A DNA stretch of 64,000 bases from Bacteroidales bacterium (lineage in GTDB: Bacteria > Bacteroidota > Bacteroidia > Bacteroidales > VadinHA17): contig JAVVEL010000002.1 of the NCBI GenBank assembly GCA_032260385.1, positions 31,776 to 95,775 of the forward strand, written 5' to 3'. A program made the translations under genes and the position numbers. Of the stretch, positions 3,547-21,324 are shown piece by piece. The notes under the pieces are model-generated. The model ran no database searches. It saw nothing but the letters and a program-made list of their open reading frames with translations, and had not been told where the DNA came from. Each line of letters opens with the position of its first letter. The stretch's first letter is position 1.

Positions 3547-3987
3547 ATGCTTAAAGTGGATTTTCATTCGCCGGACTTTCTTCCGGATTGTGGGCTTACC
3601 TTTGTAATAATTGGAGCCAGGTACAAAGGTAACTGGATCTTCATAAGGCATAAACACAGGAAGGCATATGAGCTTCCGGCAGGACATATCAATCATTCCG
3701 AGGAGGCTGGTGATGCGGCCAGGAGGGAGCTGGAGGAAGAAACAGGGGCATTGAAATACACTATTGAGTGTATTGCAACCTATACAGTAAGTGAAGATGG
3801 GAAGGCCAGGGCAGGAAGATTATATTATGCAGTGGTCAGGGCTATGAGTGAGGAAGTGGATGATAATGAAGTTGATGAAGTCTTATTATGCGGATCGCTG
3901 CCTCAGGAATTAAGTTTTCCCTATGTTCAGGCTGCCTTATTTGCTTACCTTGAAAAATATCATGCCCGTCAGATAAATTCAAGGTAG
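3547..3987 (+). CDS. NUDIX hydrolase
   Basis: Nudix box GHINHSEEAGDAARRELEEETGA. Confidence 0.8.
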   Translation: MLKVDFHSPDFLPDCGLTFVIIGARYKGNWIFIRHKHRKAYELPAGHINHSEEAGDAARRELEEETGALKYTIECIATYTVSEDGKARAGRLYYAVVRAMSEEVDDNEVDEVLLCGSLPQELSFPYVQAALFAYLEKYHARQINSR

Positions 3988-5150
3988 ACTTCCTTAAGCC
4001 AGTTTTCTTCAAGCATTGCAGCTATCTTCTTCACAACATTACGCCTTATTTCAAGATCAACCGGAAGGTTTGGATCCTGGTGTGCAATATTGATCCTGGT
4101 ACCAATGATGAACCTGATCTCATCTGATTCCATGAATAGCCTGACTATTTTATCAGCCGGACCCTTGCCGGGTTTGTGTTTTTTATAATTCCCAAGAATT
4201 TCGGCTACTTTTTGGAGGCTCAATATACCTTCGGTGACAAGGTCTATTCCTTCAATAAAACTTTCAGGCGGCAGTTCGGGATCTTCAAAAACCATATTGT
4301 CAGTTATTTCCTTTCCTGTTTCCCTTGCTATTATATCTGCTGTAGTGCCACCGCTGATAATTACTCTTCCGCTGAAATCCCTGACCTTTGCCGCAAGTGA
4401 CTTATCGTTTTCCTTTTCATAGGGAGGTCCCGTACACAGCAGCAGCTTCCTGGGCTCCCTGAAATATATCCCGGCGCAACTTGTATCGTCCCTTGAGCTG
4501 TATTCATCGTTCTTATGAGCCATGGTGATAATTTTTGAAGCCAGTTTACCTGCTGATATTGTCGGTTCGGATGATATTAACATCCTTGAGTAGCTTATTA
4601 AATTTTCCCTGCCCCATCCAAAGGGATAGCTTTCACTTCCCATTCCGCTCTGTACAACGCCATCGGTGCATGTTATTATCCTGTCCTCCTTCTCGGCCGT
4701 GAAAGAGCACGTGAGGAGCTGCCTGCCGGCATGCTTACCTTCAGTAAGCTCTACTTTCTTCCAGGATGGTTCGTATATTCCGGTGCCCCTGATTACTATG
4801 CAGGGAGGATTGTCAAACTCCAGAATGGTGACCCTTCCGTTAACTTCAATATCGATAATGGTAAAAGTGGCATAGCTGATCTTTCTCTCAGAACATACCG
4901 GCAAAGTATTCATTATAATGGATGCAATCTTTTCTACCTCCCTGTGTTCACGAGTAAAATTTAATGCCATGGTTGCACTGAGAGTCGCCAGGATATTTGC
5001 CTTTACACCATGACCCATGCCATCGGAAAGCACGGTAATAATTCGTCCTTCCTCCCTGATTCTTCTTGACAGAAAGACATCACCACAAATCTTCTCTTCA
5101 TGATGACTTCTCTGCTGGCAGTCAACTTCTATATGAAACTCCTTGTTCAC
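3969..5150 (-). CDS. PP2C/SpoIIE-family Ser/Thr phosphatase with a ~170-aa C-terminal domain of unknown function
   Basis: CGDVF...VLSDGMGHGVKA...DGV at the N-terminus. It is the last gene of the ferredoxin / HydS-PAS / phosphatase operon, with an 11-nt gap to the upstream gene. Confidence 0.8.
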   Translation of the reverse strand: MNKEFHIEVDCQQRSHHEEKICGDVFLSRRIREEGRIITVLSDGMGHGVKANILATLSATMALNFTREHREVEKIASIIMNTLPVCSERKISYATFTIIDIEVNGRVTILEFDNPPCIVIRGTGIYEPSWKKVELTEGKHAGRQLLTCSFTAEKEDRIITCTDGVVQSGMGSESYPFGWGRENLISYSRMLISSEPTISAGKLASKIITMAHKNDEYSSRDDTSCAGIYFREPRKLLLCTGPPYEKENDKSLAAKVRDFSGRVIISGGTTADIIARETGKEITDNMVFEDPELPPESFIEGIDLVTEGILSLQKVAEILGNYKKHKPGKGPADKIVRLFMESDEIRFIIGTRINIAHQDPNLPVDLEIRRNVVKKIAAMLEENWLKEVYLEFI

Positions 5151-5161
5151 CGGCCCTGGTA

Positions 5162-7036
5162 TTAATTCTGAGTCTTATTATCTTCCTTGTTTTTCCTGTA
5201 TGATTCCAGTATCGAATTAAGCATTTTTTCAGTTTCTGAAGCTCCCTCTCCGAGGAGGAAGCCTATTTTCTGAACCATATCGAGATTCTTTTCGATCACA
5301 TCATTGATCCGCATAATTATTTCTTCCCTCTGAACCTCCGGTGAAAACATATCGCGTAATACAGCCCCGGCTATCTTGCCCTTGCTTATCGGAAACACAG
5401 AAATGTTAAGCATCGTCTCGTTAAATCTTATGTCCCTGTTAACAACCGACTCATCCTGCCTCAGAGCATAGGTAAACATGTTATAGACATTGAAGGGCAG
5501 AATGGATTTAAGATCAGCGCCCTTTAGCCCCGGTATGATTTCTGAAATATTTACTGCATCCTCTCCTGCAATATTTATAAATGACTTATTTGAATGAATT
5601 ATCTTCAGGTTCTGGTCGACAATGACCACAGCCGAGGGAAGTTTTTCAAGCATTGAATTAACCGTTTCTGAAGCTTCCTGTGTCAGCTCTTTTTCCCTGC
5701 GTGCCTGAGTTTCCGATTCGCGGAGGGCTTTTTGGGTCTCTGACAATTTTTTATTTGTTATTCTCAGTTTTTCAATATACTCCTGTTTGTTCCTGATATT
5801 ATATTTGTGACACATCTCCGGGATTGTCAGTCCCATTGCCACCGTTACTGCAAAATCACGGCACGATTCGTAACCGCAGGCACCGCAGTTGTCTTCAATC
5901 CGGTCGCCTGTTCTTCCAATTATCCTCAGTACTTCATTAATGGCTGATTCGGGAGGTTCGGGGATTCTCTGATCATCAGCCCGAAATTTTCTTGAATAAT
6001 CAAGCACACTCCACTTCTTCATATCCTTTTCCCATTGCTCCCTGTCGAGTTCTTTAAGCCTTTTATCAGTGTAGAGCCTTACCAGGTTACGCCTCCTGTA
6101 CCTTTCGTTGTGATGGTCCATCCCGGGACCCAGCAGGCAACCCTGGCAAAAGAAAAGGTTGAAATGATGCTTTATGATGTCAATGTGGCTGTGAAAATCC
6201 TTTACCGCCTCGCTTATGTCATCTTTACCGGAAGCGGTAATAATGCCACTTTCCATAACATCACGCTTTATTCCTGCCGCATATATTATCCCCGAGGGTA
6301 TTGGAAATAAGGCCCCATAATTGCCGTATGGAGGATCGAAATCAGAATTTTTTACTTTTTTTTCTTCTATCCCTGCTTCTTCGAAAAGCTTCCTCAGTTC
6401 AATGAAGGTAAGAACCGAATCAATTGTGCCCTTGCCCTTCCCGCTTAATGCCTCGTCCTTGCTGTCAATACAGGGGCCAATGTAGATAAGGTTGGTAGCT
6501 TCACCATATTTCTCCCTGGCTATCATCCCGGTAGCGACCATGGGAGACACCAGGGGAGCAAGGTTTGACGCGAGCCCCGGATAGTATTTTTCAATCATCT
6601 TTACAATGACGGGGCAATTCGATGTAATATAATACTTACCCCGGGCTGATTCGAACAAGTCGCGGTAGAGTGCAGCAATTATGTCAACCCCGAAAGAAAC
6701 TTCGTGAACATGGTCAAAACCCAGTTGTCTCACCATCGCAACAAGCTTCCTGTAGTCGGTTATGTCATCAAACTCCGAGGCTATGCTGGGGGCAACCAGC
6801 GCAATATTTTTTTTTCCGTTCCTGAGTAATTTGAGCGTTTCTTCCGTTGAATCCCTGAATCTTACAGCCCCGGCTGAGCAGGCTATAAAACATAGTCCGC
6901 AGCCAATACACCTGTCAGGGATTATGGCAGGATGCTGATTGCCCGCCTTTACCTCGATGGCCTTAACCGGACAAACCCTGATACAACTGTATGAATCGGT
7001 GCATTTATCCTGGTCAATGTATATTATGGGCTCCAT
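5162..7036 (-). CDS. Sensory-type [FeFe]-hydrogenase-like protein with a C-terminal PAS domain (HydS/HfsB-like)
   Basis: N-terminal 2x[4Fe-4S] motifs (CTDSYSCIRVCP, CIGCGLCFIACS). H-cluster motifs TSNCP, GPCIDSKDE and FFCQGCLLGPG. A Cx2Cx4Cx16C motif at aa 384-409, a coiled coil, and a PAS-like segment at about aa 460-565. Confidence 0.85.
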   Translation of the reverse strand: MEPIIYIDQDKCTDSYSCIRVCPVKAIEVKAGNQHPAIIPDRCIGCGLCFIACSAGAVRFRDSTEETLKLLRNGKKNIALVAPSIASEFDDITDYRKLVAMVRQLGFDHVHEVSFGVDIIAALYRDLFESARGKYYITSNCPVIVKMIEKYYPGLASNLAPLVSPMVATGMIAREKYGEATNLIYIGPCIDSKDEALSGKGKGTIDSVLTFIELRKLFEEAGIEEKKVKNSDFDPPYGNYGALFPIPSGIIYAAGIKRDVMESGIITASGKDDISEAVKDFHSHIDIIKHHFNLFFCQGCLLGPGMDHHNERYRRRNLVRLYTDKRLKELDREQWEKDMKKWSVLDYSRKFRADDQRIPEPPESAINEVLRIIGRTGDRIEDNCGACGYESCRDFAVTVAMGLTIPEMCHKYNIRNKQEYIEKLRITNKKLSETQKALRESETQARREKELTQEASETVNSMLEKLPSAVVIVDQNLKIIHSNKSFINIAGEDAVNISEIIPGLKGADLKSILPFNVYNMFTYALRQDESVVNRDIRFNETMLNISVFPISKGKIAGAVLRDMFSPEVQREEIIMRINDVIEKNLDMVQKIGFLLGEGASETEKMLNSILESYRKNKEDNKTQN

Positions 7037-7050
7037 AGTTGCTTGTTTAA

Positions 7051-7305
7051 TTATATATTAATACCGGGCCTATCTTTAAGTATCATTTCGATATTGCCCT
7101 TCTTAATATCCCCTATAATATCATCATTAAACGAAATATTGGGTCCTTTCTGGCAATTGCCCAGGCAATGCGAGCCCTTGATAACAAGCTTGTCCCTGAG
7201 ATGATGCTTCTCAAGAAAGGAATTAAGCTCTTCTACAATATCTTTATTCCCCCGTGCAAAGCATGAACTGCCAAGGCATATCCTTATTTCATCAGGTTTT
7301 TTCAA
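7051..7305 (-). CDS. Small thioredoxin-like [2Fe-2S] ferredoxin (NuoE/HydC-fold)
   Basis: CLGSSC...CLGNC four-Cys pattern. TTG start at 7303-7305. First gene of the minus-strand operon. Confidence 0.7.
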   Translation of the reverse strand: MKKPDEIRICLGSSCFARGNKDIVEELNSFLEKHHLRDKLVIKGSHCLGNCQKGPNISFNDDIIGDIKKGNIEMILKDRPGINI

Positions 7306-7330
7306 TTTTGTTGTTTATTTAATAACATTC

Positions 7331-7338
7331 CAAATTTA
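7331..7338 (-). promoter_or_regulatory. Bacteroidota-type -7 promoter box (TAAATTTG) for the ferredoxin / HydS-PAS / PP2C operon
   Basis: The reverse complement of caaattta matches TAnnTTTG, 26-33 nt upstream of the TTG start. Confidence 0.3.
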
Positions 7339-7504
7339 ATCAAATAATCAATACTGCTTAAAGAATTGAATTACTTTTTAAGAGCTGCAGTAATTTCTAT
7401 TTATTATTTGGTGGCTAATTGCAGGTTTATTATCGAATTGAAGTCCTGGATATATTAATACATTATATATCAATAAAATAACATTAGTATATTTAGTTAT
7501 TTTG

Positions 7505-7524
7505 AGTGTTAATAAAATAACACT
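7505..7524. promoter_or_regulatory. Candidate Rex operator (perfect 7-bp inverted repeat)
   Basis: AGTGTTA-ATAAAA-TAACACT. The inner 18-mer GTGTTAATAAAATAACAC matches the clostridial/thermotogal Rex consensus TTGTTAAnnnnTTAACAA at 11 of 14 defined positions. It lies about 60 nt upstream of the hydC ATG, and a rex gene is in the same locus. Confidence 0.4.
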
Positions 7525-7553
7525 GTTTAATGCGTAACAATAAATATATTGTT

Positions 7554-7561
7554 TATATTTG
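7554..7561 (+). promoter_or_regulatory. -7 promoter box TATATTTG for the hydCBA operon
   Basis: Matches TAnnTTTG. It sits inside a 16-mer, ATTGTTTATATTTGTA (7548-7563), that is repeated identically at 15237-15252. Confidence 0.45.
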
Positions 7562-7581
7562 TAGTGCAAGAATATTTCCAT

Positions 7582-8061
7582 ATGAAAATGGATAAAAAAA
7601 CAAGGAATAATCCAGGTAAATATAAGACTTCCGGACGGAATGACCTGATAACTCTCTTACAGGAGATTCAGGCTGAAAAGGGGTTTATTTCTGAGGAATC
7701 AATTAAAGCACTTGGGGAGCTTCTTGGAATAAGCACCACCAAAATATACGGGGTAGCAAGTTTTTATGATGGTTTTCGCTTTTCGCCCGGGGGCAGGGTA
7801 TATATACGTCTATGTAAGGGAACAGCTTGCTATGTGAACAGGACTTTTAATATTGCTGAGCTTATATCGGAAGAGCTTAAGATCAAACCGGGTGAGACAT
7901 CACCTGACGGGAAGCTCAGTATTGAGATGGTCGATTGTATGGGGGCATGTCATCTAGGGCCCCTGATAGCCGTAAATGAAAGATATTATACAATAGGTTC
8001 AGAAAGAGAACTACGACAAATACTTGGGAGGATAAAGAAGGATGAGCAGTCAGTCGTCTGA
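7582..8061 (+). CDS. hydC: [FeFe]-hydrogenase NuoE-like [2Fe-2S] subunit
   Basis: CKGTAC...CMGAC pattern and NuoE-like LLQEIQAEKGFIS. I prefer the ATG at 7582 over the TTG at 7549 in the track. Confidence 0.85.
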   Translation: MKMDKKTRNNPGKYKTSGRNDLITLLQEIQAEKGFISEESIKALGELLGISTTKIYGVASFYDGFRFSPGGRVYIRLCKGTACYVNRTFNIAELISEELKIKPGETSPDGKLSIEMVDCMGACHLGPLIAVNERYYTIGSERELRQILGRIKKDEQSVV

Positions 8062-10003
8062 ATATAATGGTGGCGATAAGAGGAAATTCCTGATTGAAGA
8101 GGTACTCGCCAATCGCTCCGATACCGTAAGCAATGAAGTACAGGCCGTCCTTGATACAATCAGCAGGGCCAGTGCAGAGCTTCCAATTATCTCAGTGTCG
8201 TACAACAGTGGAAGTATTATTTCGGGTGCTGATAAAACTTATGAGGCTCTCGGTCAATATATACTTGATTATGGTGTGCAGGCTGATATTCTAAAAGGCG
8301 GATGGTCTGGCGCTACCAACTTTGACCCTGTAGTGACAATTAAGCTGCCGGGTAAAAACTGCTTATTCTTCAGGAATATTTATCCTGAGAAAGTGGAAAG
8401 CCTTCTGAGCAGTGTCCTGCACAGTGAGATCCCGGCGGATGACTTCCTGGGCCAGGAAGGAAAGAACAAGTCAGGAGAATGGCCCGGACTGGTCTACCTT
8501 TCAGATCATCCCTTCATGAAGTTTCAGAAAAGATGGCTACTGAGTGAGGGTGAACCGTATGAACCTGCAGATATTGAGTTATATATAGCGAATGGAGGAT
8601 ATAAAACCCTTGTAAAGACTCTTAATAGTTACACAATAGAAGAAGTGTGTGACATCATTGAAAAAAGTGGTTTAAGGGGAAGGAGCGGAAGTGGCTTTCC
8701 TACGGGGCGGAAATGGAAATATGCACAGGCTTCGGACTCTGAAGTAAAATATCTTGTCTGCAATGCCCGTGAGAGCGATCCGGGGGCCTTTACAGACAAG
8801 ATGCTGATAGAAGGACAACCACACAAACTGCTGGAAGGCATGGTAATAGCATCCTATGCCATGGGGGCATCAAAGGCTTTTATCTATACTCAAAACGGTG
8901 CTGATCATACAATCTCAGTATTAAAAGAATCCATAAAACAGGCTTACGATTACGGCCTGCTGGGTGATAATATCTTCGACAGCGGATTCAGACTGGATAT
9001 AGAAGTACGGGTTGATCCCGGAGCTTTTGTCTGCGGTGAAGAAACGGCCCTGGTGGGAAGCCTTGAAGGGCGAAGGGGCATGCCACAGGTAAAACCACCC
9101 TTTCCGTCGTCTTCGGGACTGAATAACTGCCCAACCATTATCAATAACGTGGAGACCCTTATGAATGTACCGCTAATTATGAAGAACGGCCCTGAATGGT
9201 TCAGTGAGGCAGGTACTCCCGGTAGTAAGGGAACCAAGGTATTCTGGCTCTCGGGTAAGTCAGCTCTGAAGGGGCTTATTGAGGTTGAAATGGGTACCTC
9301 ATTAAGGTCGGTTATAGAGGATACAGGTGATGGCATTGCTGGTGGTAAAGAATTGAAAGCCCTGTTGATAGGAGGAGTGTCAGGCTATCTTCTCCCCGAA
9401 AAAAAGATCGATATTGCCATTGATTATGAAGAATTGAAGAAGGCCGGAGCAGGAATGGGATCGGGCGGACTCCTTATAATTGATGAGAATACCTGCCTTA
9501 TTGATCTTTCGAGATACCAGATGGAATATATGCAGAACCAGAGCTGTGGGAAATGTATACCCTGCAGGGAGGGCACATCACGAATGTTTGAAATATTATC
9601 AGCTGTGGTTAAAAAACCACCTGTTGAATCGGCAATGACAACCCTTGAGAGGTTTAAGGGTGTAATGCAGCTTGAAAATATAGCGAAGGTAATGAAGGAA
9701 ACCTCCCTTTGCGGACTGGGCCAGAATGCACCCAACCTCTTTCTTTCTGTCCTGACCGATTTCAGGGATGAACTGGAAGAACATATTTTTGACCGTCGCT
9801 GCCGGGCAAATCGCTGCCACGGCCTTCGTACCTTTGTCATAGATGTTGATAAATGCACAGGGTGTACCCTGTGTGCTGAGAAATGCCCGGTAAATGCCAT
9901 TTACGGAACCAGGTTGCAGCCTTATTTTATTGTGGATGAAAAGTGTACCGGTTGTGGTATCTGCTATGATGTGTGCAAGTTTGATGCGGTTTCAGTAAAG
10001 TAA
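8042..10003 (+). CDS. hydB: [FeFe]-hydrogenase NuoF-like flavoprotein subunit
   Basis: Motifs RGRSGSGFPTGRKW, ESDPGAF and SCGKCIPCREG...LCGLGQ, plus C-terminal CTGCTLCAEKCP and CTGCGICYDVCK. It overlaps hydC by 20 nt. Confidence 0.9.
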   Translation: MSSQSSEYNGGDKRKFLIEEVLANRSDTVSNEVQAVLDTISRASAELPIISVSYNSGSIISGADKTYEALGQYILDYGVQADILKGGWSGATNFDPVVTIKLPGKNCLFFRNIYPEKVESLLSSVLHSEIPADDFLGQEGKNKSGEWPGLVYLSDHPFMKFQKRWLLSEGEPYEPADIELYIANGGYKTLVKTLNSYTIEEVCDIIEKSGLRGRSGSGFPTGRKWKYAQASDSEVKYLVCNARESDPGAFTDKMLIEGQPHKLLEGMVIASYAMGASKAFIYTQNGADHTISVLKESIKQAYDYGLLGDNIFDSGFRLDIEVRVDPGAFVCGEETALVGSLEGRRGMPQVKPPFPSSSGLNNCPTIINNVETLMNVPLIMKNGPEWFSEAGTPGSKGTKVFWLSGKSALKGLIEVEMGTSLRSVIEDTGDGIAGGKELKALLIGGVSGYLLPEKKIDIAIDYEELKKAGAGMGSGGLLIIDENTCLIDLSRYQMEYMQNQSCGKCIPCREGTSRMFEILSAVVKKPPVESAMTTLERFKGVMQLENIAKVMKETSLCGLGQNAPNLFLSVLTDFRDELEEHIFDRRCRANRCHGLRTFVIDVDKCTGCTLCAEKCPVNAIYGTRLQPYFIVDEKCTGCGICYDVCKFDAVSVK

Positions 10004-10008
10004 TTATT

Positions 10009-11724
10009 ATGCTGATAACTATAGAAGTAAACAGAAAGAAACTGAAGGCTGAAAAGGGAGAGACAATCCTCAAGGCACTGAACAGGAATGGTATAAACAT
10101 ACCCACCCTCTGTCGCCTCAGGGGTCTTACACCAACGGGAGCATGCAGGATCTGTGTCGTGGAGGTGGAAGGGGAGGATATGCTTGTTACAGCCTGTTCT
10201 GAACCTGTAAGGGAATGGATGAAGATAAAAACTCATTCTCCCAGGGTTATCAGGGCAAGAAAGTCTATAGTAGAATTGTTGCTCTCAAATCATCCTGACA
10301 ATTGCCTGTACTGTGACAGGAATCTTAACTGTGAATTACAGAGCTTAGCCGGTGAGCTCAACATCCGGGAACGCCGTCTGAGTGGCAATAAACTGACTCT
10401 CAAACTGGACCAGTCAAGCCCTGCCATAACAAGAGAATTGTCAAAATGTATCTTATGTGGCCGCTGTGTTCGTATTTGTGAGGAAGTGGTGGGGGTAAAT
10501 ACCCTGGATTTTATCGGAAAGGGAAGGACAACACATATAGGCACCACAATGGATAAGGATTTTAATTTTTCCAGTTGCATACATTGTGGTCAGTGTGTCA
10601 CTGTATGTCCTACCGGTGCTCTCCATGAAAAACACAATATAAGGGAGGTCCAGGATTACCTCACAAAGAAAGACACACTTAAGGTAATCCAGTTTTCTCC
10701 CCTGGTGGCCTTCTCTGTTGCCCGGGAGATGGGCTTAAAGTATTCTCAGAACTTTGATAAGAAGCTCAGTGAGGCGCTTGTCCGGATAGGCTTTGACAGG
10801 GTTTATTACGCAGGTTTTGGTTCCGATATAATGATAAATGAATTGACGGAGCAGCTGGTAAATAATAAGGCCGGTAAATTGAACCAGACTATTTATACTT
10901 CCCATTGCCCTGCATGGGTGAAATATGCCGAACAATTTATGCCCGGTCTTCTTGAAAAGTTATCTGATTTGAAGTCGCCTCAACAAATTACAGGAGCCCT
11001 GATTAAAACCCTGGTAAGCGCCAGGGAGGAAGTAAGTCCTGAAAATATATATTCTGTGTCAGCCACCCTCTGTACGGCGGCCAAGTATGAAGCCAGGCGG
11101 GATGTAATGACAAGAAAGGGAATAAGCGATATAGAAACCATACTGACAGTGCGTGAACTGGTACAGCTACTGAAACTTTATGGTATAAATATGGATATGC
11201 TTGACGGAAGAAATATTGATGAACCACTGAACCTTTCCAGTTTCTCGGCTTTAATAACCGAGGTTTCCGGGGGTCTGACAGAGGCACTTGTAAAAAATAT
11301 TGCCCGGGACAAGGGCTTTGAGCTCTCTGCTTCTGATATAAGGAAATTAAGAACGGCAGGCGATTTCAGGGAACTTATGATAAGAGCCGGGGAACATGAG
11401 TACAACTTTGCTCTTGTGGATGGTCTTACCGGGCTTGATAAGCTCAGTAACAGGATGGGATCAGTTCATTATGACCTGGTTGAAATAATGGTCTGCCAGT
11501 CAGGATGCGTCAATGGAGGAGGGGTTAACAGTGATGAGAACGGTGAGTCAGTAAGGGACCGTATTAAGATGGTATATAAAAGTGAAGGAAATACTGCTAT
11601 CAGCATGCCAATGGATAATCCGGCACTCAGAAATTTTTATGAAAAATGGCTACCCTTTGATAAAGACTTGTCAGATAAAAAGATATTCAAAAACAAATAT
11701 TCAAAAAAGAACGTCCTTCTATGA
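10009..11724 (+). CDS. hydA: CpI-architecture (M3-type) [FeFe]-hydrogenase large subunit with non-canonical H-cluster environment motifs
   Basis: N-terminal 2Fe-2S (CRLRGLTPTGACRIC), His-ligated and 2x[4Fe-4S] motifs, then TSHCPAW, TLCTAAKYE and EIMVCQSGCVNGGG. The C-terminal tail resembles a small-subunit domain. Confidence 0.9.
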   Translation: MLITIEVNRKKLKAEKGETILKALNRNGINIPTLCRLRGLTPTGACRICVVEVEGEDMLVTACSEPVREWMKIKTHSPRVIRARKSIVELLLSNHPDNCLYCDRNLNCELQSLAGELNIRERRLSGNKLTLKLDQSSPAITRELSKCILCGRCVRICEEVVGVNTLDFIGKGRTTHIGTTMDKDFNFSSCIHCGQCVTVCPTGALHEKHNIREVQDYLTKKDTLKVIQFSPLVAFSVAREMGLKYSQNFDKKLSEALVRIGFDRVYYAGFGSDIMINELTEQLVNNKAGKLNQTIYTSHCPAWVKYAEQFMPGLLEKLSDLKSPQQITGALIKTLVSAREEVSPENIYSVSATLCTAAKYEARRDVMTRKGISDIETILTVRELVQLLKLYGINMDMLDGRNIDEPLNLSSFSALITEVSGGLTEALVKNIARDKGFELSASDIRKLRTAGDFRELMIRAGEHEYNFALVDGLTGLDKLSNRMGSVHYDLVEIMVCQSGCVNGGGVNSDENGESVRDRIKMVYKSEGNTAISMPMDNPALRNFYEKWLPFDKDLSDKKIFKNKYSKKNVLL

Positions 11725-13706
11725 ATTCAGTGGGGAGAAACAGGCAATTGGTTTATACACGCAGGGAACTTTGCAGAACATGTTATACTTGTGTGAGGGA
11801 ATGTCCTGCCAAAGCCATCAGGATAGAAAACGGACAGGCAGAGGTAATACACGAAAGGTGTATTGCCTGTGGAAATTGTACCAAGGTTTGCAGCCAGGGA
11901 GCAAAAGTCTTCATGTGGACAAAGGATATAGTGGAGGAGATACTTAAATCAGGAAAGACGGCAGCGATAGTGGCACCAAGCTTTCCTGCCGAGTTCAATG
12001 ACCTTTCCGACCACAGCTTCCTTGTCTCGATGATAAGGGCACTGGGTTTCAGTTATGTAAGTGAGGTTGCCTTTGGTGCTGATCTTGTTGCCGACTGCTA
12101 CCGTCAACTTCTGAACGAATGTGACAGGAAGTATTATATTTCCTCTGACTGCCCTTCAATAACGAGATTTATTAAATATTATCATCCTGACCTGACAGAC
12201 AGCCTTGCCCCCGTGGTATCCCCGATGGTGGCAATGACCAGGGCCATGAGGAAGCTGTACGGACAGGATCTTAGGATTGTCTTCATCGGACCATGCGTGG
12301 CAAAAAAAGATGAAAGTACAGAGGTTGACGAGGCCCTTACTTTTACTGAACTGAGATCTATGTTTGAAGAGAGAGGTATAAGTCCTGAGACTGTTATACC
12401 AGCTGAATTTGATCCCCCCCTGGGAGGCAAGGGAGCCATTTTCCCCGTAGCCAGGGGTTTGCTCCAGACGGCAGGTATTAATGATGATGCCGTTTCGGGA
12501 AATATAATAGCCGCTGAAGGAAGAACAGCCTTCCAGGAGGCTATTAAAGAATTTGAGGAAGGGCAGGTTCATGACCAGCACCTTGAGCTGCTTTGCTGCA
12601 TGGGTTGTATTATGGGACCGGGATTTACTGACCGCGGAAAATATTATAACCGCAGAACTCATGTAAGCAGCTATGCCCGCAAAAAGCTTGATTCAATGGA
12701 TCACAGGCAATGGAAGGAAGCCTTCATTAAAATGAATGATCTTGACCTTTCAGTTAAGCATGAACCGGATGACAGGAGACTGGAAAACCCCGGAAGGTTT
12801 GAGATTGAAAACGTCCTGAGACAGATGGGAAAAAACAGTATCAAAGATCATTTGAACTGTGGTGCCTGCGGATATGAGACATGTATTGAACATGCTGTGG
12901 CAATAAGCAAGGGACTGGCAGAGGTTGAGATGTGCCTGCCATTTACAATAGAACAGCTGCACAGCTCGGTGAATGATCTGGCGCTTTCAAATGAGAAGCT
13001 GAGTTCAATGAAGCAGGCTCTGAGACAATCGGAAAAACTTGCCCATATGGGTCAGCTATCTGCCGGTATAGCTCACGAGCTGAACAATCCTCTCGGAGTG
13101 GTAATAATGTACAGTAATATATTACTGGAAGAATGTGCAGAAGATGACCCTTTAAGGGATGACCTGAACCTGATTACCGAGCAGGCGGCCAGATGTAAAA
13201 AGATTGTTTCAGGACTGCTCAATTTTGCAAGGAAGAGCCAGGTAAACCATGATTATGCCAACCTGAATGAAGTCATTAAACAAAGCATCGAGTCACTTAT
13301 AATACCGGAAGGTATCGATTTAAAAATTGAGGATAAATCAAATAATCCTTCGGTTATGGTGGATACTGAACAGATGATACAGCTTATCTCAAACCTGCTT
13401 AAAAACTCGGTGGATGCAATGAAGGGAAGGGGGAACCTGAGAATTACCCTGGAAGATTCCGGCAAAAACGTCACCTTGAAGGTCTGGGATAACGGGCCCG
13501 GCATAGACGAGGATAAAAGAGAAAAAATATTTGAACCCTTCTTCACTACCAAGGAGACAGGCAGCGGTACAGGCCTGGGACTGGCAACTGCCTATGGTAT
13601 AGTGAAGATGCATAAGGGCCAGATAAAGGTCGATTCAAACAGCGATCCCGAAAAAGGCCCTACATTTACACAATTTATTATAAGCATACCAAGGACAAAT
13701 GAATAA
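11721..13706 (+). CDS. Sensory-type [FeFe]-hydrogenase domain fused to a histidine kinase (HisKA + HATPase_c)
   Basis: 2x[4Fe-4S] N-terminus. H-cluster motifs [14 protein letters not shown] and [12 protein letters not shown] Cx2Cx4Cx16C motif at aa 380-405. H-box AHELNNPL, N-box [15 protein letters not shown] and GSGTGLGLA. There is an ATGA overlap with the hydA stop. Confidence 0.85.
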
Positions 13707-14091
13707 GAAGATTACAGTTTTTGTTGTTGATGACGACCCGGATTACCTTTTTCAAACGGTAGTCCACCTTGAAAAAGCGGGATATAATGTTATTAGCGCT
13801 GTGAGTCAAAAAGAAGCCGAGGATATCATAGATACGGTAAAACCGGATATTGCATTGTTTGACCTTATGATGGAACAGGATGACAGTGGTTTTATACTTT
13901 GCTATAAACTGAAGAAAAAATATCCGGATCTGCCCGTAATAATTGCTACCTCTGTCTCCAGGGAGACAGGCCTGTCTTTCGGCCTGGATTCGGAGGAGGA
14001 AAGAAGGTGGATAAAGGCAGATGCTTACCTTGAAAAGGGAGTACGGGCTGATCAGCTTAACGAAGAAATTAAACGTCTGTTAAAAATTTGA
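13699..14091 (+). CDS. Stand-alone response-regulator receiver protein
   Basis: VVDDD, FDLMM (phospho-Asp), IIATS and EKG motifs. No output domain. It overlaps the upstream kinase gene by 8 nt. Confidence 0.85.
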   Translation: MNKKITVFVVDDDPDYLFQTVVHLEKAGYNVISAVSQKEAEDIIDTVKPDIALFDLMMEQDDSGFILCYKLKKKYPDLPVIIATSVSRETGLSFGLDSEEERRWIKADAYLEKGVRADQLNEEIKRLLKI

Positions 14092-14092
14092 A

Positions 14093-15229
14093 ATGGCTGA
14101 ACTAAAGATATTGATAGTGGATGATGAAGCCGGAATCAGATCAGGTGTCAGCAGGATTTTGAACAGGTTCAGGGTAAACTATCCTTTTATGGATGAAGTC
14201 TATACTTTTAAGGTGATTGAGGCTGAGACAGGTGAAAAGGGTATTGAGATAATTGACACTGAAAGGCCTGATATAGTATTGCTTGATAATAAACTTCCAG
14301 GAATTTCCGGCGTTGAAGTGCTTGACTATATTAAGCAGAAAAATTATGACATAGTTGTGGCGATGATTACATCTTATGCATCGCTTGATGTGGCATTGAG
14401 GGCTACAAGGGACGGAGCCACCGACTTTATACCCAAACCATTTACACCCCAGGAACTTAAATCCTCGATCGAGAATATAAGCAAGCAGCTGTATCTTAAA
14501 AGGATAACAAGCAGTATGAATGAGGAAGGAAAGAAGATCCGGTTCAGGTTCCTGTCGGTTTTGTCACATGAGCTTAAGTCGCCCCTGAATGCCGTGGAAG
14601 GATATCTGTATATGATGAGGGACCGCGAAGCAGGAGACAATATGAACGATTATACACCCATGATCGAAAGATCAATACAGCGCATACAGGGAATGCGTAC
14701 CCTGATCATGGATCTGCTCGATTTTACCAAGATAAGACTGGAAGTGAAGAAAGATAAGGTGCTTGATTTAGATCCTGCCTTGATTATGAAACAATGTATA
14801 GAAACTATTAATCCACTTGCCATACAGAAAGATGTCTCAATAGTAATTGATAAAAAGTCAGATATCATAATATCAGCAGATGAGGAGGATATAAATATCA
14901 TCTTCAACAACCTGCTTTCAAATGCGGTGAAGTATAACAAAGAGGGGGGTAGTATTTTTATTACAATCGACAGAAAAGTGAACGACGCTGTAATAGAAGT
15001 GAAAGACACTGGCATTGGAATAAGCAGTGAAGACCAGCAGGTTCTTTTTAATGAGTTCGTACGGATCAAAAATGATAAAACACGGAATATTACCGGAAGC
15101 GGACTGGGTTTGTCTATAGTGAAAAAGATCGTCGCTTTGTATAATGGTTCGATAACAGTCGACAGCAGGCCTGACGAAGGAAGCGTTTTTACATTGAAAC
15201 TTCCAATCCGGCAGGAAAAAGGAGGATAA
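14093..15229 (+). CDS. Hybrid receiver-histidine kinase (REC-HisKA-HATPase_c)
   Basis: IVDDE...LLDNKLPG receiver, SHELKSPLN H-box, NLLSNAVKYN, DTGIGI and GSGLGLSIV. Confidence 0.85.
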   Translation: MAELKILIVDDEAGIRSGVSRILNRFRVNYPFMDEVYTFKVIEAETGEKGIEIIDTERPDIVLLDNKLPGISGVEVLDYIKQKNYDIVVAMITSYASLDVALRATRDGATDFIPKPFTPQELKSSIENISKQLYLKRITSSMNEEGKKIRFRFLSVLSHELKSPLNAVEGYLYMMRDREAGDNMNDYTPMIERSIQRIQGMRTLIMDLLDFTKIRLEVKKDKVLDLDPALIMKQCIETINPLAIQKDVSIVIDKKSDIIISADEEDINIIFNNLLSNAVKYNKEGGSIFITIDRKVNDAVIEVKDTGIGISSEDQQVLFNEFVRIKNDKTRNITGSGLGLSIVKKIVALYNGSITVDSRPDEGSVFTLKLPIRQEKGG

Positions 15230-15242
15230 TTATTCTATTGTT

Positions 15243-15250
15243 TATATTTG
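15243..15250 (+). promoter_or_regulatory. -7 promoter box TATATTTG upstream of rex
   Basis: Part of the 16-mer ATTGTTTATATTTGTA (15237-15252), which is identical to 7548-7563. It lies 22 nt before the rex ATG. Confidence 0.4.
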
Positions 15251-15272
15251 TACGGTTGACAAAATCATAAGG

Positions 15273-15893
15273 ATGAAAGAACTACCAGGAAAAACTGTTG
15301 AAAGGCTGAGTGGTTACCGCAGGAATCTTCTGGGCTACCTGTCTGCCGGTAATAGTTATATCTACTCCCATGAGCTGGCTGCCCTGCTTCATATTACGGC
15401 AGTGCAGGTAAGAAGAGACCTGATGCTTATAGGCTATTCCAGTGTTCAGAAAAAAGGCTATGATGTAAAGGAGCTCATTGATACCATAGCTTCAATAATT
15501 GATTCTGAACAAGGCCAGAATATTGCAGTAATAGGCATTGGAAATCTCGGCCGCGCAATAACTTCCTATTTCAAGGGTAAAAGATCCAAACTCAATATTG
15601 TTGCTTCATTCGACAATGACCCACAGAAAGTCAACAGGGTAATAGCCGGAGTTAGATGCTATCCTGTTGAACAAATGGAGCATATTGTGGCAGAACAGAA
15701 TATCACGATTGCCTTGCTTACCATACCTCCCGATTTTGCCAGGCCTGTTGCCGATGCAGCCATAAGGGCCGGGATAAAAGGCATCCTGAATTTTACAACC
15801 GTTCCGCTAAATGTGCCACCAAATGTCTATCTTGAAGAGTATGACATGATTACGTCAATAGAGAAAGTTGCATATTTTGTAAAAGAAGGATAA
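15273..15893 (+). CDS. rex: Redox-sensing transcriptional repressor Rex
   Basis: N-terminal winged helix (RLSGYRR...VQVRRDL), a Rossmann motif IGIGNLGRA, and GIKGILNFT. Confidence 0.85.
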   Translation: MKELPGKTVERLSGYRRNLLGYLSAGNSYIYSHELAALLHITAVQVRRDLMLIGYSSVQKKGYDVKELIDTIASIIDSEQGQNIAVIGIGNLGRAITSYFKGKRSKLNIVASFDNDPQKVNRVIAGVRCYPVEQMEHIVAEQNITIALLTIPPDFARPVADAAIRAGIKGILNFTTVPLNVPPNVYLEEYDMITSIEKVAYFVKEG

Positions 15894-15908
15894 GGATAGG
15901 AGCAGGGG

Positions 15909-16835
15909 ATGAAAGTATATTATGGATTGGAGGAGGTGGAGAAAATAAAGAATCCTGTTATTACAACAGGTACCTTCGATGGTGTGCATTTTGGGCATAA
16001 GACCATCCTCGGAAGAATCAAAAAACTTGCTGAACAATATGAGGGAGAATCAGTCCTCATAAGTTTCTATCCCCATCCCCGCAAGGTGCTTTATCCTTCT
16101 ACGGAAGGTAAGTGCCTCCATTTGATAACAACTCTGGATGAGAAAATAGACCTACTTGAAAAAGAGGGACTCGATAACCTTATCCTGCTTGAATTTACCA
16201 AAGAATTTGCAAGGGTATCAAGCAGTGAATTCATTGAAAAATATATATCTTCCAAACTCCGGCCCAGGGTGATTGTTGTTGGGTATAACCACCATTTTGG
16301 ACACAACAAGGAAGGTAATTACCAGTACTTAAAGTCAATATCTGCCTTGTATGGCTTTGATACTGAAGAGATTCCCGAACAGGAAGTGCTGAATGAGACG
16401 GTGAGTTCAACGCAAATAAGAAAGGCACTGGTCGAAGGATATATTCAAAGGGTAAACGCCTATCTCGATCACTTTTATTTTATTAGCGGCTCACCCGGAA
16501 AGTGGGAACCGGATACTCATCTTAATGACCATACCGGAATAGTGCTGAGGATTGATGATGAGGATAAACTTCTTCCACGTCAGGGTGCTTACGCCGTGAG
16601 TGTCCCCGGGGATGGGTCCAAAACACACGGGCTGGCTTTTATCCCGCAAAAAACGGAAGGAAGAAGAGAGGTGGCAATTATTTTATTCGAAAACTTTTCT
16701 CCGGGCATTAATATTACCCACAGGTTAAGGATTAATTTTCATAAAAGGATGGACGGTAAAATACAGTTTGATTCACCTGAATCATTACGGGTTCCTGAGA
16801 AGTTAATCAATGATACCATGGAACTTATTTATTGA
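15909..16835 (+). CDS. ribF: RibF-like FAD synthetase with an apparently degenerate riboflavin-kinase domain
   Basis: The N-terminal half has GTFDGVHFGH and SSTQIR. The C-terminal half aligns with the kinase fold (GAYAV...) but lacks the G-x-x-LGFPTAN motif. Confidence 0.7.
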   Translation: MKVYYGLEEVEKIKNPVITTGTFDGVHFGHKTILGRIKKLAEQYEGESVLISFYPHPRKVLYPSTEGKCLHLITTLDEKIDLLEKEGLDNLILLEFTKEFARVSSSEFIEKYISSKLRPRVIVVGYNHHFGHNKEGNYQYLKSISALYGFDTEEIPEQEVLNETVSSTQIRKALVEGYIQRVNAYLDHFYFISGSPGKWEPDTHLNDHTGIVLRIDDEDKLLPRQGAYAVSVPGDGSKTHGLAFIPQKTEGRREVAIILFENFSPGINITHRLRINFHKRMDGKIQFDSPESLRVPEKLINDTMELIY

Positions 16836-16919
16836 AGGATATGATATAATTCATTGTAATCGCTTCCTTCATTTACTTTATTTGCAGTACGTTTAATCAG
16901 TATAAGTCTAAATAACGAT

Positions 16920-18344
16920 ATGAAATTCAATCCCGAAAAATTATCAATAAGGGATCAGAGGATGAAAGCCTTCATTGATCCTGATGAAATCTGGAATATA
17001 ATAAACAACACAAAGCCGGACAGGCAAAGGGTGAAGGAGGTAATAGCCAAATCGCTTGACAAGAACAGGCTGACCCTGGAAGAAACGGCTGTGCTTATAA
17101 ATGCTGACGACCCCGGCTTGATTGAGGAGATAAAGGCCGGGGCACGCGCCCTGAAGGAAAAAGTGTACGGAAACAGGATCGTTCTCTTTGCTCCCTTATA
17201 TATAGGTAATTTTTGCAGCAATAATTGCCTGTACTGTGGTTTCAGGTCAAGTAACACCGAGGCCGTGAGAAGGACACTGACCGATGATGAGATAGTTAAA
17301 GAAGTATCGGCACTTGAGGATAACGGGCAGAAGCGCCTTATCCTGGTTTACGGTGAGCATGCCAAATATTCAGCTGAATACATAGCACATACCGTGAAAC
17401 TGGTTTATGGAGTCAAAAAGGGCAGGGGTGAGATAAGGAGGGTAAACATCAATGCTGCTCCACTTGATATAGAGGGCTTCCGAACAGTAGGTGAAGCAGG
17501 TATAGGGACTTACCAGATCTTCCAGGAAACATATCATCCTGAAGCTTATAAATGGTATCACCTTGCCGGCAAAAAGAGCGATTATGACTGGAGGCTGACA
17601 GGTCTTGACAGGGCACAGGAGGCAGGAGTTGATGACGTAGGCATTGGCGCCTTATTCGGATTGTATGACTGGCGTTTCGAAGTGCTGGGCCTGGTACGTC
17701 ATACAAACCACCTGGAGGCATGCTATAATGTGGGCCCCCACACAATCTCATTCCCGAGGCTCAAGGATGCCGCCACAATAAATATGAACAGGAATTTTGA
17801 AGTGAAAGATGATGAATTCAAGCGACTTGTGGCTATACTCAGACTGGCTGTGCCCTATACGGGTATGATACTGACAGCAAGGGAGAGCCATGATGTGAGA
17901 AGGGAAGTGATAAAGTATGGCGTTTCCCAGATTGACGGCGGTACAAAAATTGAACTTGGCTCATATTCTGATCTTAAGAATGAGCAGCAGAACCTTAACA
18001 GGGAACAGTTCATGATCAATGATGCCAGGTCGCTGGCTGAAGTGATTGACGAATTGCTCGATGATAACTTTATACCTTCTTTCTGTACCGCATGCTACAG
18101 GCTGGGAAGAACAGGAGAACATTTCATGGAGTTTTCCGTAGCCGGATTTATAAAAAGATATTGCTCACCTAATGCTGCACTTACCCTCGCAGAATACCTG
18201 GTCGATTATGCAGATGAACAGCTTGCTGAAAAAGGATGGAGGGCAATAGACCGGGGACTGGCAGCCTTAGATGAAGATGTAGCATTAAAAACAAAGGAGA
18301 GAATTGAAAGGATAAAGCAGGGTGATAGAGATCTTTATTTTTAA
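16920..18344 (+). CDS. hydG: [FeFe]-hydrogenase H-cluster radical-SAM maturase HydG
   Basis: CSNNCLYCGF radical-SAM motif and C-terminal CTACx22C (CTACYRLGRTGEHFMEFSVAGFIKRYC). Confidence 0.9.
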   Translation: MKFNPEKLSIRDQRMKAFIDPDEIWNIINNTKPDRQRVKEVIAKSLDKNRLTLEETAVLINADDPGLIEEIKAGARALKEKVYGNRIVLFAPLYIGNFCSNNCLYCGFRSSNTEAVRRTLTDDEIVKEVSALEDNGQKRLILVYGEHAKYSAEYIAHTVKLVYGVKKGRGEIRRVNINAAPLDIEGFRTVGEAGIGTYQIFQETYHPEAYKWYHLAGKKSDYDWRLTGLDRAQEAGVDDVGIGALFGLYDWRFEVLGLVRHTNHLEACYNVGPHTISFPRLKDAATINMNRNFEVKDDEFKRLVAILRLAVPYTGMILTARESHDVRREVIKYGVSQIDGGTKIELGSYSDLKNEQQNLNREQFMINDARSLAEVIDELLDDNFIPSFCTACYRLGRTGEHFMEFSVAGFIKRYCSPNAALTLAEYLVDYADEQLAEKGWRAIDRGLAALDEDVALKTKERIERIKQGDRDLYF

Positions 18345-18364
18345 ATTTATACGAATAACTAAGT

Positions 18365-18892
18365 ATGGCAAAAATAGTAGCAATAAGGGTAATAGACAGG
18401 ATAAAGGAGGCAGGACACACACAGGATGTTCTGAGTAAGCATTCTTCAATAATTAAAACACGGCTCGGCTTTCATGAACTAAATGAGGACAGATGCAGCA
18501 GGGAAGGCTATATTTTGCTTTATCTCAGGGATAATGCGAAGGGGCGGAGTGACTTTTTGAAGGATCTCGATAAGATTTACGGCATCGAGATAAAGGAAAT
18601 GAACCTGCTTGCCGGGCCGGTTAAGCCTGCTTCCATCCCTGACGGATCTGCCGTTACCGTGGTGGGCTTGGTGGTAAATAACAGGTCAGATATTGCCAGT
18701 GAAGTCCAGCGAGCACTCACCTTATACGGTTGTACAATAAGAACACGTATGGGTATCAATGAAGAAGACCATGGCCACGACACCGGTCTTATCCTGCTGG
18801 AGCTTAAGGGCGATAATTCAGAGATGAACAGTCTGCTAAAACGGCTGGAACAAATTGAAAACGTAATTGTTGGAGTTATCTCCTTCAGTTGA
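18365..18892 (+). CDS. Tandem TM1266-like (ACT/NikR-C-like) putative iron-only hydrogenase system regulator
   Basis: Two ~80-aa halves share a beta-alpha-beta pattern (VAIRVIDR...TRLGF...GYILLYL and VVGLVVNN...TRMGI...GLILLEL). It lies directly after hydG, as TM1266-family genes do. Confidence 0.5.
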   Translation: MAKIVAIRVIDRIKEAGHTQDVLSKHSSIIKTRLGFHELNEDRCSREGYILLYLRDNAKGRSDFLKDLDKIYGIEIKEMNLLAGPVKPASIPDGSAVTVVGLVVNNRSDIASEVQRALTLYGCTIRTRMGINEEDHGHDTGLILLELKGDNSEMNSLLKRLEQIENVIVGVISFS

Positions 18893-18907
18893 GATATACC
18901 GGATATC

Positions 18908-20208: not shown

Positions 20209-21324
20209 TCATTTACCTTCTTCTTTCTGCCTGCGCAAATAATGTAGTGAATCACCCCATTCACCATAGCCCGGCTCCGCGTTAACCTCCCTCAGTCCCA
20301 TCGTCAGGTTTTTAATAAAATCATCCAGTGAGTCACCTGTGAGCGGTTTGTTTTCATAGAGATAATAATCGTCGCGGTAGAGGCCCGGGGTTATATTGGG
20401 CATTATAACATTTGCACCTATGCTGACAGCTTTTTCCCTGCCCTTTGGATCTATTGCCTGCAGGGCTGTGGATGCAGCTATATTGATGTCTTTCATAAGT
20501 ACCCGTAACACTGCTATCATCTTCAGGGAAAGATCGAAGCGGTCTGCAAGGGGGAGAAGCTCATCCTTATATTTTGCCAGCGGTGTACCGGAGTGCTCAA
20601 TGTAAGGGCCCATACCGACCATATCGATATCAAATTTTTTCATAAAGAGAAGGTCGGCTGCAAGATCTTCATAGGTCTGGAAGGGCAGGCCTATCATCAC
20701 ACCTGTGCCCGCATGGTACCTGAGCCTCTTTAAGGTGTGGAGACATTCCAGCCTCCTGTGATAACTGTGCAGTTCATCATCCGGGTGCAGCTTTGCATAT
20801 AGCCCGGGATTGGATGCTTCAATACGGAGCAGGTACCTGTGAGCACCTGCTTCATACCATTCGCGGTAAACTTCCTCGCTCTGTTCTCCCAGGGAAAGTG
20901 TAATACCCAGCCTGCCATCCGAAAGGTCCTTTATTGATTTCAGCAGGCGTGTTACCCTGAATGTAAAAGATGGATTACTCCTCTCACCCGACTGTAAAAC
21001 TATCGACCCGAAATTATTTTCAAATGCATAACGGGCAGCGTCCAGTACTTCTTTGTCGCTAAGGGTATATCTTTTGAATTTTTTATTATCCCTGCGAATG
21101 CCGCAATAGAGGCAATTCTTTTCACAGACATTTGATAATTCTATTAATCCCCTGAAATAAACCTTATTGCCGGAATATTTATGCTTTAAGCGGGCTGACT
21201 CCCTGAAAAGTTCATCCCTGTCATCCCCTTCGGTCCTGAGCAGTCTTATTATTTTATCCGCATCAAACTTTTTACCCTTCAATATGTCTTTTATCATGCT
21301 TCTCATTCTCTTTATTGGGATCAC
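20209..21324 (-). CDS. hydE: [FeFe]-hydrogenase H-cluster radical-SAM maturase HydE
   Basis: CEKNCLYCGIRRDN motif and a BioB-like fold pattern. The true start may be one of the internal Met residues at aa 7 or 10. Confidence 0.8.
   Translation of the reverse strand: MIPIKRMRSMIKDILKGKKFDADKIIRLLRTEGDDRDELFRESARLKHKYSGNKVYFRGLIELSNVCEKNCLYCGIRRDNKKFKRYTLSDKEVLDAARYAFENNFGSIVLQSGERSNPSFTFRVTRLLKSIKDLSDGRLGITLSLGEQSEEVYREWYEAGAHRYLLRIEASNPGLYAKLHPDDELHSYHRRLECLHTLKRLRYHAGTGVMIGLPFQTYEDLAADLLFMKKFDIDMVGMGPYIEHSGTPLAKYKDELLPLADRFDLSLKMIAVLRVLMKDINIAASTALQAIDPKGREKAVSIGANVIMPNITPGLYRDDYYLYENKPLTGDSLDDFIKNLTMGLREVNAEPGYGEWGDSLHYLRRQKEEGK

Follow-up and report, generated by a model that had tools for sequence, protein, structure and literature searches.

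We analysed a stretch of 64,000 nucleotides (the window) from the genome of a Bacteroidales bacterium of the VadinHA17 lineage (contig JAVVEL010000002.1), in which the gene at 11721-13706 of the forward strand encodes a protein with an H-cluster domain fused to a histidine kinase. We consider it probable that the product is a soluble histidine kinase of the cytoplasm that senses through a [FeFe]-hydrogenase domain of the sensory (group C) type, working by the mechanism proposed below; most likely it is a hydrogen or redox sensor that controls the neighbouring hydrogenase genes. The observations that carry this reading are the architecture of the protein, the conservation of its metal ligands, the continuity and heptad phase of the helix that joins cluster to kinase, the kinase motifs, the operon context and the presence of maturase genes. 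The features of the sensor gene are the following.

11721..13706, + strand: sensor gene, H-cluster domain plus histidine kinase, 661 amino acids (open reading frame (ORF) and translation, Pfam, AlphaFold2 (AF2) model, Foldseek)
11754..11903, + strand: N-terminal ferredoxin-like domain, residues 12-61, two CxxCxxCxxxCP motifs (Pfam Fer4_10, Fer4_9, Fer4)
11955..12620, + strand: H-domain, residues 79-300 (Pfam Fe_hyd_lg_C, E=1.5e-41; alignments to solved hydrogenases)
12147..12149, + strand: GAC codon of Asp143, which aligns with CpI Cys299, the first residue of the proton relay (alignments)
12852..12941, + strand: C-terminal Fe-S domain PF04060, C380-x2-C383-x4-C388-x16-C405 (Pfam FeS, E=2.8e-8)
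12936..13133, + strand: single long helix, residues 406-471 (DSSP on the AF2 model)
13047..13235, + strand: HisKA (DHp), residues 443-505, with the codon of the phospho-acceptor His452 at 13074-13076 (Pfam, E=8.5e-14)
13362..13670, + strand: HATPase_c, residues 548-650, with N, G1, F and G2 boxes (Pfam, E=3e-25)

The Pfam scan found no PAS and no other domain in residues 407-443, and together with the positions of the motifs it bore out an earlier note on this DNA, made from the sequence alone, which had claimed this order of domains without a PAS and had placed H452 in AHELNNPL. The motifs SSDCP, GPCVAKKDE, [11 protein letters not shown] and AHELNNPL were seen in the translation, and the set quoted earlier ([26 protein letters not shown] plus Cx2Cx4Cx16C, C380-C405) was found in full. 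The N-terminal domain is predicted to hold two accessory [4Fe-4S] clusters; in our alignment A2 its cysteines C18, C21, C24, C28, C47, C50, C53 and C57 are invariant or near-invariant, and the four cysteines of the PF04060 domain (residues 378-407) are all invariant. In the kinase part of the same alignment H452 is near-invariant, N455, N456, P457, N562, D590, G592, G594 and G618-L621 are invariant, and F604, F607 and F608 are conserved.

Comparison with solved structures gave the same division of the protein. By sequence, the kinase part matched ZraS (4.9e-31) and ThkA (1.5e-30) in the PDB. An AF2 model, built with an alignment of 20 sequences as input (mean predicted local distance difference test score, pLDDT, 84.9), was matched by Foldseek over its N-terminal two-thirds to CbA5H (E=6e-22), DdH, TkHydA1 and CpI, and over the remainder to the ZraS kinase core (E=7e-18). 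No sensory group C or D hydrogenase was among the solved structures matched by sequence or fold. A chance match to [FeFe]-hydrogenases and to kinases is excluded: the similarity of the H-domain, which the earlier note had offered for refutation by profile searches, survived Pfam, HMMER and Foldseek alike.

As to class, the protein has the H-box His in a DHp helix, the N/G1/F/G2 boxes and the adjacent receiver of a HisKA-class kinase. It also has what marks a sensory group C-type hydrogenase, namely four Cys ligands in the P1, P2 and P3 motifs, 2x[4Fe-4S] plus Cx2Cx4Cx16C, a fused signalling module and a hydCBA neighbour, together with a loss of Cys299, M353 and M497 and of the proton pathway of group A. 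The marks of catalytic group A (Cys299 in TSCCP, the E279-S319-E282-R286 pathway, M353 and M497) are absent, and the NCBIfam group A and group B models scored far under their cut-offs. It does not fit group D either: where that group has Ser or Thr at M353 and a conserved Glu (E252 of TamHydS) beside the bridgehead amine, the sensor has Gly190 and Leu247, the latter aligned with CpI V423, which we infer from PMC10407848 to be equivalent to E252.

The earlier note had also placed an Asp at the position of CpI C299. HMMER alignments to T. maritima HydA, T. kivui HydA1 and DdH C178A, and a MAFFT alignment to CpI, agreed on this, equating D143 with C299 and C144 with the ligand C300; the top-scoring CpI entry in the PDB for the sensor, by sequence, was the C299D variant 6glz. 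The sensor residues C144, C192, C293 and C296 align to the CpI ligands C300, C355, C499 and C503. Also retained in the pocket are K195 (K358 of CpI), A85-P86-S87 (A230-P231-S232), P324 and F417, while M353 is changed to Gly190 and M497 to Leu291. By its residues the pocket seems fit for an H-cluster, but the known proton pathway behind the Asp is absent. The Ser of 'KSPQQ' in the sensor was ruled out as a counterpart of S319, for CpI numbering makes it S323.

The Asp is conserved in a lineage-specific way. The motif [ST]SDCP is present in 120 out of 120 close homologues and in every Bacteroidota locus examined, down to 53% identity (L005-L009, L012 and L023; L-numbers denote the relatives' loci that we examined). 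None of 118 representatives of 50%-identity clusters has Asp there; in these the position is the most variable of the pocket, being occupied by A, P, T, S, N, H, C, F and others. Among fused sensors, Thr is found in Planctomycetota, Desulfobacteraceae and Bdellovibrionales, and Ala or Pro in Ignavibacteriota, Elusimicrobiota and Bacillota. Since other phyla use T, A or P and Bacteroidota keep Asp constant, Asp143 is neither required by the family nor random, but fixed and maintained in one phylum. In published statistics for sensory enzymes this position is Ala in ~43%, Cys in 17%, Pro in 10% and Ser in 10%, with Asp unmentioned (PMC10055695). The earlier note had named Asp as the only substitution reported to retain proton transfer and activity; this agrees with the work of Morra 2012 on CaHydA, where C298D was the only Cys substitution that kept activity (PMC3485046; restated in PMC10055695).

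A second conserved trait is the connection between the last cluster and the kinase. In the AF2 model the helix of residues 406-471 begins right after the cluster ligand C405 and passes through H452. We measured the number of residues between the last Cys of Cx2Cx4Cx16C and the phospho-His, and found it to be 47 in all 119 of 119 close homologues. In distant direct fusions the spacing was 33 (3 representatives), 40 (4), 47 (16), 54 (4) and 68 (1), so that 28 out of 31 measurable representatives are in heptad phase (47 +/- 7n), the three off-phase ones having 44, 48 and 49. Fetched loci gave 40 (5 loci), 47 (19) and 44 (1), that is, 24 of 25 in phase. These counts are inflated by relatedness, though the pattern covers several phyla. 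Length steps of seven are what would be predicted for a coiled-coil signalling helix that keeps cluster and His in register, and the conserved phase argues for a direct coiled-coil coupling of the cluster to the phospho-His.

The sensor gene stands within a cluster of hydrogenase, relay and maturase genes, accompanied by a divergent unit with a second sensor.

7549..8061, + strand: hydC, NuoE-like (Pfam)
8042..10003, + strand: hydB, NuoF-like (Pfam)
10009..11724, + strand: hydA (Pfam; best solved match T. kivui bifurcating HydA1, E=2.2e-115)
13699..14091, + strand: stand-alone receiver without output domain (Pfam Response_reg)
14093..15229, + strand: REC-HisKA-HATPase_c, second-tier kinase with N-terminal receiver (REC-HK; Pfam), position conserved across phyla
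15273..15893, + strand: Rex-type redox-sensing repressor (Pfam Put_DNA-bind_N and CoA_binding)
16920..18344, + strand: hydG (NCBIfam, 490.8 bits, cut-off 312)
18365..18892, + strand: TM1266-like gene, between hydG and a saccharopine-dehydrogenase-like gene
20209..21324, - strand: hydE (NCBIfam, 318.9 bits, cut-off 254.6)
3969..7305, - strand: divergent second sensor unit (Pfam), made up of the next three genes
7051..7305, - strand: truncated thioredoxin-like [2Fe-2S] protein, 84 amino acids, heading the divergent HydS-PP2C unit
5162..7036, - strand: HydS-type paralog with Asn at the relay position (TSNCP)
3969..5150, - strand: PP2C/SpoIIE phosphatase (Pfam)

The hydCBA block (7549..11724) lies directly upstream of the sensor in the same direction. 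The sensor ATG overlaps the hydA stop by 4 nt (ATGA), and the sensor stop overlaps the start of the receiver gene by 8 nt. The earlier note had seen in the former an argument for stoichiometric co-expression of sensor and enzyme. The overlap is real and suggests translational coupling; stoichiometric co-expression finds no support in it. In relatives the junction varies from an 18-nt gap (L001) to a 1-nt overlap (L003). Downstream of the sensor, the stand-alone receiver is the likely phosphoryl acceptor. The Rex gene starts 43 nt past the REC-HK gene and is followed after a 15-nt gap by ribF (FAD synthetase; Rex and ribF together 15273-16835, + strand) and then by hydG, an order shared by other Bacteroidales loci. 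A scan of 7000-19200 gave 10 terminator-like sites, with 10.3 expected from shuffled sequence, and none in an intergenic gap; the promoter scan of the same region used a sigma-70 consensus, which is inappropriate for Bacteroidota. The product of the gene at 18365-18892 (+ strand) combines a putative TM1266-like 'iron-only hydrogenase system regulator' domain (residues 97-169) with an N-terminal domain of the CPF_0552 family (NCBIfam, 8.7e-44).

In the divergent unit, the 84-amino-acid protein matches the NuoE/HydC profile over its C-terminal half only, and the PAS of the HydS-type paralog is a weak Pfam match (PAS_8, E=0.0065). In the paralog, Ser replaces Lys358 (IGPCIDSKDE) and also the second Cys of the first ferredoxin motif, giving CxxSxxCxxxCP. 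Among Bacteroidales-type loci with the upstream flank read, L001, L003-L005 and L023 contain the unit and L006 does not. With Asp in the sensor, Asn in the paralog (TSNCP) and His in HydA (TSHCP), the three H-domains of the locus indeed all differ in their relay residue and none has Cys, as the earlier note had stated.

The 120 best database matches to the sensor all have its architecture (~653 amino acids, 65-90% identity) and come mostly from metagenome-assembled genomes of Bacteroidales. Representatives of 50%-identity clusters, scanned exhaustively with HMMER, yielded at least 40 distinct clusters that are direct fusions with a complete H-domain, as well as forms with an insert of 90-400 amino acids and kinase-less PAS-type forms. 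The GTDB genomes with a full-length fusion belong to Bacteroidota, Thermoguttaceae, Ca. Kuenenia, Desulfobacteraceae, Elusimicrobiota, Ignavibacteriota, Bdellovibrionales, Anaeromyxobacteraceae and Bacillota.

The gene order hydC-hydB-hydA-sensor-response regulator-(REC-HK) recurs in most of these groups, over at least seven lineages of phylum level. It is kept in Bacteroidota, Planctomycetota (Thermoguttaceae and Ca. Kuenenia), Ignavibacteriota, Bdellovibrionales and Anaeromyxobacteraceae. Of 20 distinct loci with a readable upstream neighbour, 17 have the sensor gene right after hydA. Sensor and relay genes with no adjacent hydCBA within the DNA read were found in Desulfobacteraceae, Elusimicrobiota and Bacillota; L011, L013 and L049 are loci with such sensors. 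A stand-alone receiver directly follows the sensor in most loci examined, across phyla. Rex is encoded downstream in Bacteroidales; in L015, L016, L018 and L024 it precedes hydC. In the Ignavibacteriota-type loci L014, L017, L019 and L021, a further receiver gene and a second hydCBA with TSCSP in its HydA come after the sensor, response regulator and (REC-HK) genes, and the relay of these genomes may be flanked by two hydrogenase operons. The TSCSP motif, with Ser at the CpI C300 ligand, is found in HydA of L010, L015, L016 and L018 as well as in those second copies, and is shared by the structurally solved A. woodii HydA1.

The HydA encoded next to the sensor has a remodelled pocket. Relative to CpI it shows C299 to His, K358 to Ala, M353 to Thr, P354 to Leu, S232 to Leu, F417-G418 to Thr-Glu, E279 to Leu and E282 to Gln, with the four Cys ligands kept, and it scores under both NCBIfam group A cut-offs (523.6 vs 765 and 306.9 vs 405.95). 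Judged by these residues and scores, it is not a canonical group A enzyme. Among its 120 closest homologues (59-100% identity), Cys299 is present in none of the 111 with a readable motif, and Lys358 is replaced by Met or Ala in every P2 motif listed. The remodelled form is also found in L001, L003, L005, L006 and L023; relatives mostly have Ala299, with S232 changed to Leu or Met and F417-G418 to Thr/Ala-Glu. HydA of the same operon is fully canonical in deeper Bacteroidota (L008, L009 and L012) and in other phyla. A role of the window HydA as a subunit of a Sporomusa-type Nfn (Stn) transhydrogenase was ruled out, as StnC is a GltD-NuoG fusion without an H-domain. A group A3 subunit of B. thetaiotaomicron, which may or may not belong to the Bacteroidales HydA clade, was described in 2025 as having low activity and minimal transcription (PMC12578642).

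We propose the following mechanism for the sensor. HydE and HydG, encoded nearby, would assemble the H-cluster in the H-domain. H2 would be bound there and split heterolytically, and its proton might be taken by Asp143, the only protonatable side chain at the position beside the bridgehead amine. The electrons would pass to the accessory clusters, including the C-terminal Cx2Cx4Cx16C cluster. As the last ligand of this cluster, C405, caps the continuous coiled-coil helix that becomes the DHp helix with His452, the redox state of the cluster could alter the register or rotation of the helix, and this change would toggle the protein between autophosphorylation and phosphatase activity, in whichever direction. 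The phosphoryl group would then go to the stand-alone receiver, to the receiver of REC-HK, or to both, and this two-tier relay, together with Rex, would tune the hydCBA operon in its expression or activity. That the cofactor is inserted and that H2 is the ligand, as well as the part played by the Asp and the output, are drawn by us from the behaviour of TmHydS and TamHydS, which bind an H-cluster, react with H2, turn over slowly and stabilize reduced states (PMC8163306, PMC10055695 and PMC10407848), properties that fit a sensing role.

Several points weigh against this proposal. The proton pathway behind position 299 is gone (E279 is Tyr, E282 is Leu, S319 is Ala and R286 falls in a gap), so Asp143 cannot plug into the known group A pathway, and with the rest of that pathway missing its service as a working relay is unproven. 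The alternative Glu of group D is probably absent too, to judge from the Leu at the CpI V423 position and the equivalence assumed for it. By the residues found in other phyla (T, A and P), Asp is not required for the function of the fused family. In CaI, CpII and CrHydA1, a Cys-to-Asp change biases the enzyme toward H2 evolution over oxidation (PMC9563086). hydF was not found among the window ORFs in a non-exhaustive scan, the receiver and REC-HK of the relay are without a DNA-binding output domain, and the four metagenome runs that contain the sequence are all DNA and none RNA. The literature that we searched contained no biochemical study of any kinase-fused member.

The same observations can be read in other ways. 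The protein could sense the redox pool rather than H2, its ferredoxin-like clusters exchanging electrons with ferredoxin or HydABC, and its H-domain serving as a scaffold or carrying the [4Fe-4S] subcluster only, so that the kinase reports reducing pressure. The two accessory [4Fe-4S] motifs at the surface-facing N-terminus, a kinase-proximal element that is an ordinary four-Cys cluster rather than an H-cluster, and the presence in the same gene cluster of Rex, a sensor of NADH/NAD+, are in keeping with this, as is the hypervariability of position 299 across the family, which looks as if H2 chemistry were loosely constrained. K358, S232, P231, P324 and F417, however, contact only the [2Fe] subcluster and are conserved, which speaks against a [2Fe]-free scaffold, as that would need none of them; hydE and hydG are retained in the locus despite the degenerate HydA pocket of Bacteroidales, and Asp143 is invariant in Bacteroidota. 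We regard this explanation as rather unlikely. That degenerate pocket also allows a different view of the operon. HydA has lost residues that hold the [2Fe] subcluster, while the pocket of the sensor is complete, with its invariant Asp. It is conceivable, if distinctly unlikely, that the Bacteroidales operon therefore no longer makes or consumes H2 through HydA, and that the two sensors, as the only true H-cluster proteins of the locus, respond to external (interspecies) H2 and thereby regulate an NADH/ferredoxin oxidoreductase derived from HydABC. The invariant Asp would then be an adaptation that sets the H2 threshold of sensing or its pH dependence.

There are two further readings. The sensor could be a stably bound fourth subunit of HydABC ('BfuT') that reads the redox state of the enzyme itself, the coupling to hydA serving assembly. 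The ATGA overlap, the place of the sensor immediately after hydA in 17 of the 20 loci and its designation as a T subunit by Zheng and Huang (PMC11406978) favour such an arrangement; the solved HydABC complexes of T. maritima, T. kivui and A. woodii are without a subunit of this kind, docking is unnecessary for a dimeric histidine kinase that has a relay of its own, the hydA junction is unconserved (L001 and L003, above), and the sensors of L011, L013 and L049 are without an adjacent hydCBA. This makes a fourth subunit quite improbable. Least of all do we expect a catalytically competent hydrogenase, in which the natural Cys-to-Asp exchange keeps turnover, the kinase regulates itself, and the sensor is the sole H2-converting site of the Bacteroidales operon, even though C298D is the only active substitution in CaHydA and the pocket of the sensor is more intact than that of the adjacent HydA. 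Like sensory enzymes of low activity, the sensor lacks the proton pathway and has M353 and M497 replaced (by Gly and Leu), and Asp is also found where the Bacteroidota HydA is fully canonical (L008, L009 and L012), so it did not arise to replace HydA. The sensor kinase with a group C-type input remains our preferred reading.

The architecture and the type of locus are already known from comparative genomics, and the fusion has been catalogued in HydDB and by Zheng and Huang 2024. In HydDB, 'histidine kinase-linked (putative)' is the description given to [FeFe] group C1 (PMC5037454). For sub-type V BfuABC clusters (Caldithrix), Zheng and Huang 2024 report that bfuA is followed by a gene for a 'BfuT' with a His-kinase domain; they label the kinase-bearing BfuT of Caldithrix abyssi (WP_006928132.1) as C3, and report a second bfuT upstream of bfuC in the Bacteroidota Perlabentimonas, Tenuifilum and Williamwhitmania (PMC11406978), a two-sensor layout that is exactly that of the window. 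A histidine-kinase-linked gene near hnd is mentioned in a Petrimonas genome paper (PMC7768429). Kinase-bearing forms are thus labelled both C1 and C3 in the literature (PMC5037454, PMC11406978 and PMC7768429). Between HydDB C1 or BfuT and the window sensor we see no architectural difference: it is the same protein of H-domain and kinase in the same place after bfuA/hydA. What goes beyond the papers that we read is the Bacteroidota-invariant Asp at C299, the heptad-phased link from cluster to His, the conserved pair of response regulator and REC-HK, and the remodelled HydA of Bacteroidales.

The characterized relatives differ from the sensor in instructive ways. TmHydS of Thermotoga maritima (group C, M2f) shares with it 2x[4Fe-4S], the H-domain, Cx2Cx4Cx16C and Gly at M353 (PMC8163306 and PMC10055695), the lack of conservation of Cys299 and of the proton pathway, and linkage to a bifurcating hydrogenase, but has Ala at 299, Ser at M497 and a PAS without a kinase, where the window sensor has Asp, Leu and a helix-attached HisKA/HATPase_c. 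TamHydS of Thermoanaerobacter mathranii (group D, M2e) resembles it in having no PAS, three-part clusters and Leu at M497, and its gene neighbours include a histidine kinase-like ATPase (PMC8163306), which is separate there and fused here. It differs in Ala at 299, Ser at M353 and a proton path of its own, Glu252-Glu289 (PMC10407848), for which the window sensor has Gly at M353 and Leu at the inferred Glu252 position. In CaHydA C298D and CpI C299D the Asp stands at the same position; E279, S319, E282 and R286 are kept in these variants, whereas the sensor has none of them. The regulatory [NiFe]-hydrogenase HoxBC with HoxJ (HydDB group 2b) follows the same logic, a low-activity module reporting H2 to a kinase that controls hydrogenase genes (PMC5037454), but its metal site and fold are unrelated, and its separate proteins are joined through a PAS-like region, in contrast to the single polypeptide described here.

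The remodelled HydA bears on how such operons are counted. If confirmed, the degenerate pocket in Bacteroidales would alter the reading of 'group A3' counts in gut and sediment metagenomes as H2-producing capacity. For the sensors themselves, we know of no member of the 'sensory' [FeFe]-hydrogenases for which H2 sensing and signal transfer have been demonstrated, and, to our knowledge, the studied TmHydS and TamHydS offer no assayable output. The kinase-fused sensor offers a readout within one protein, autophosphorylation, and a defined first partner, the adjacent receiver. It is, moreover, a natural Cys-to-Asp variant that can be compared with the T, A and P forms of other phyla, and its heptad-phased helix, running from the four-Cys cluster to the phospho-His, provides a concrete, mutable model of redox-to-kinase coupling.

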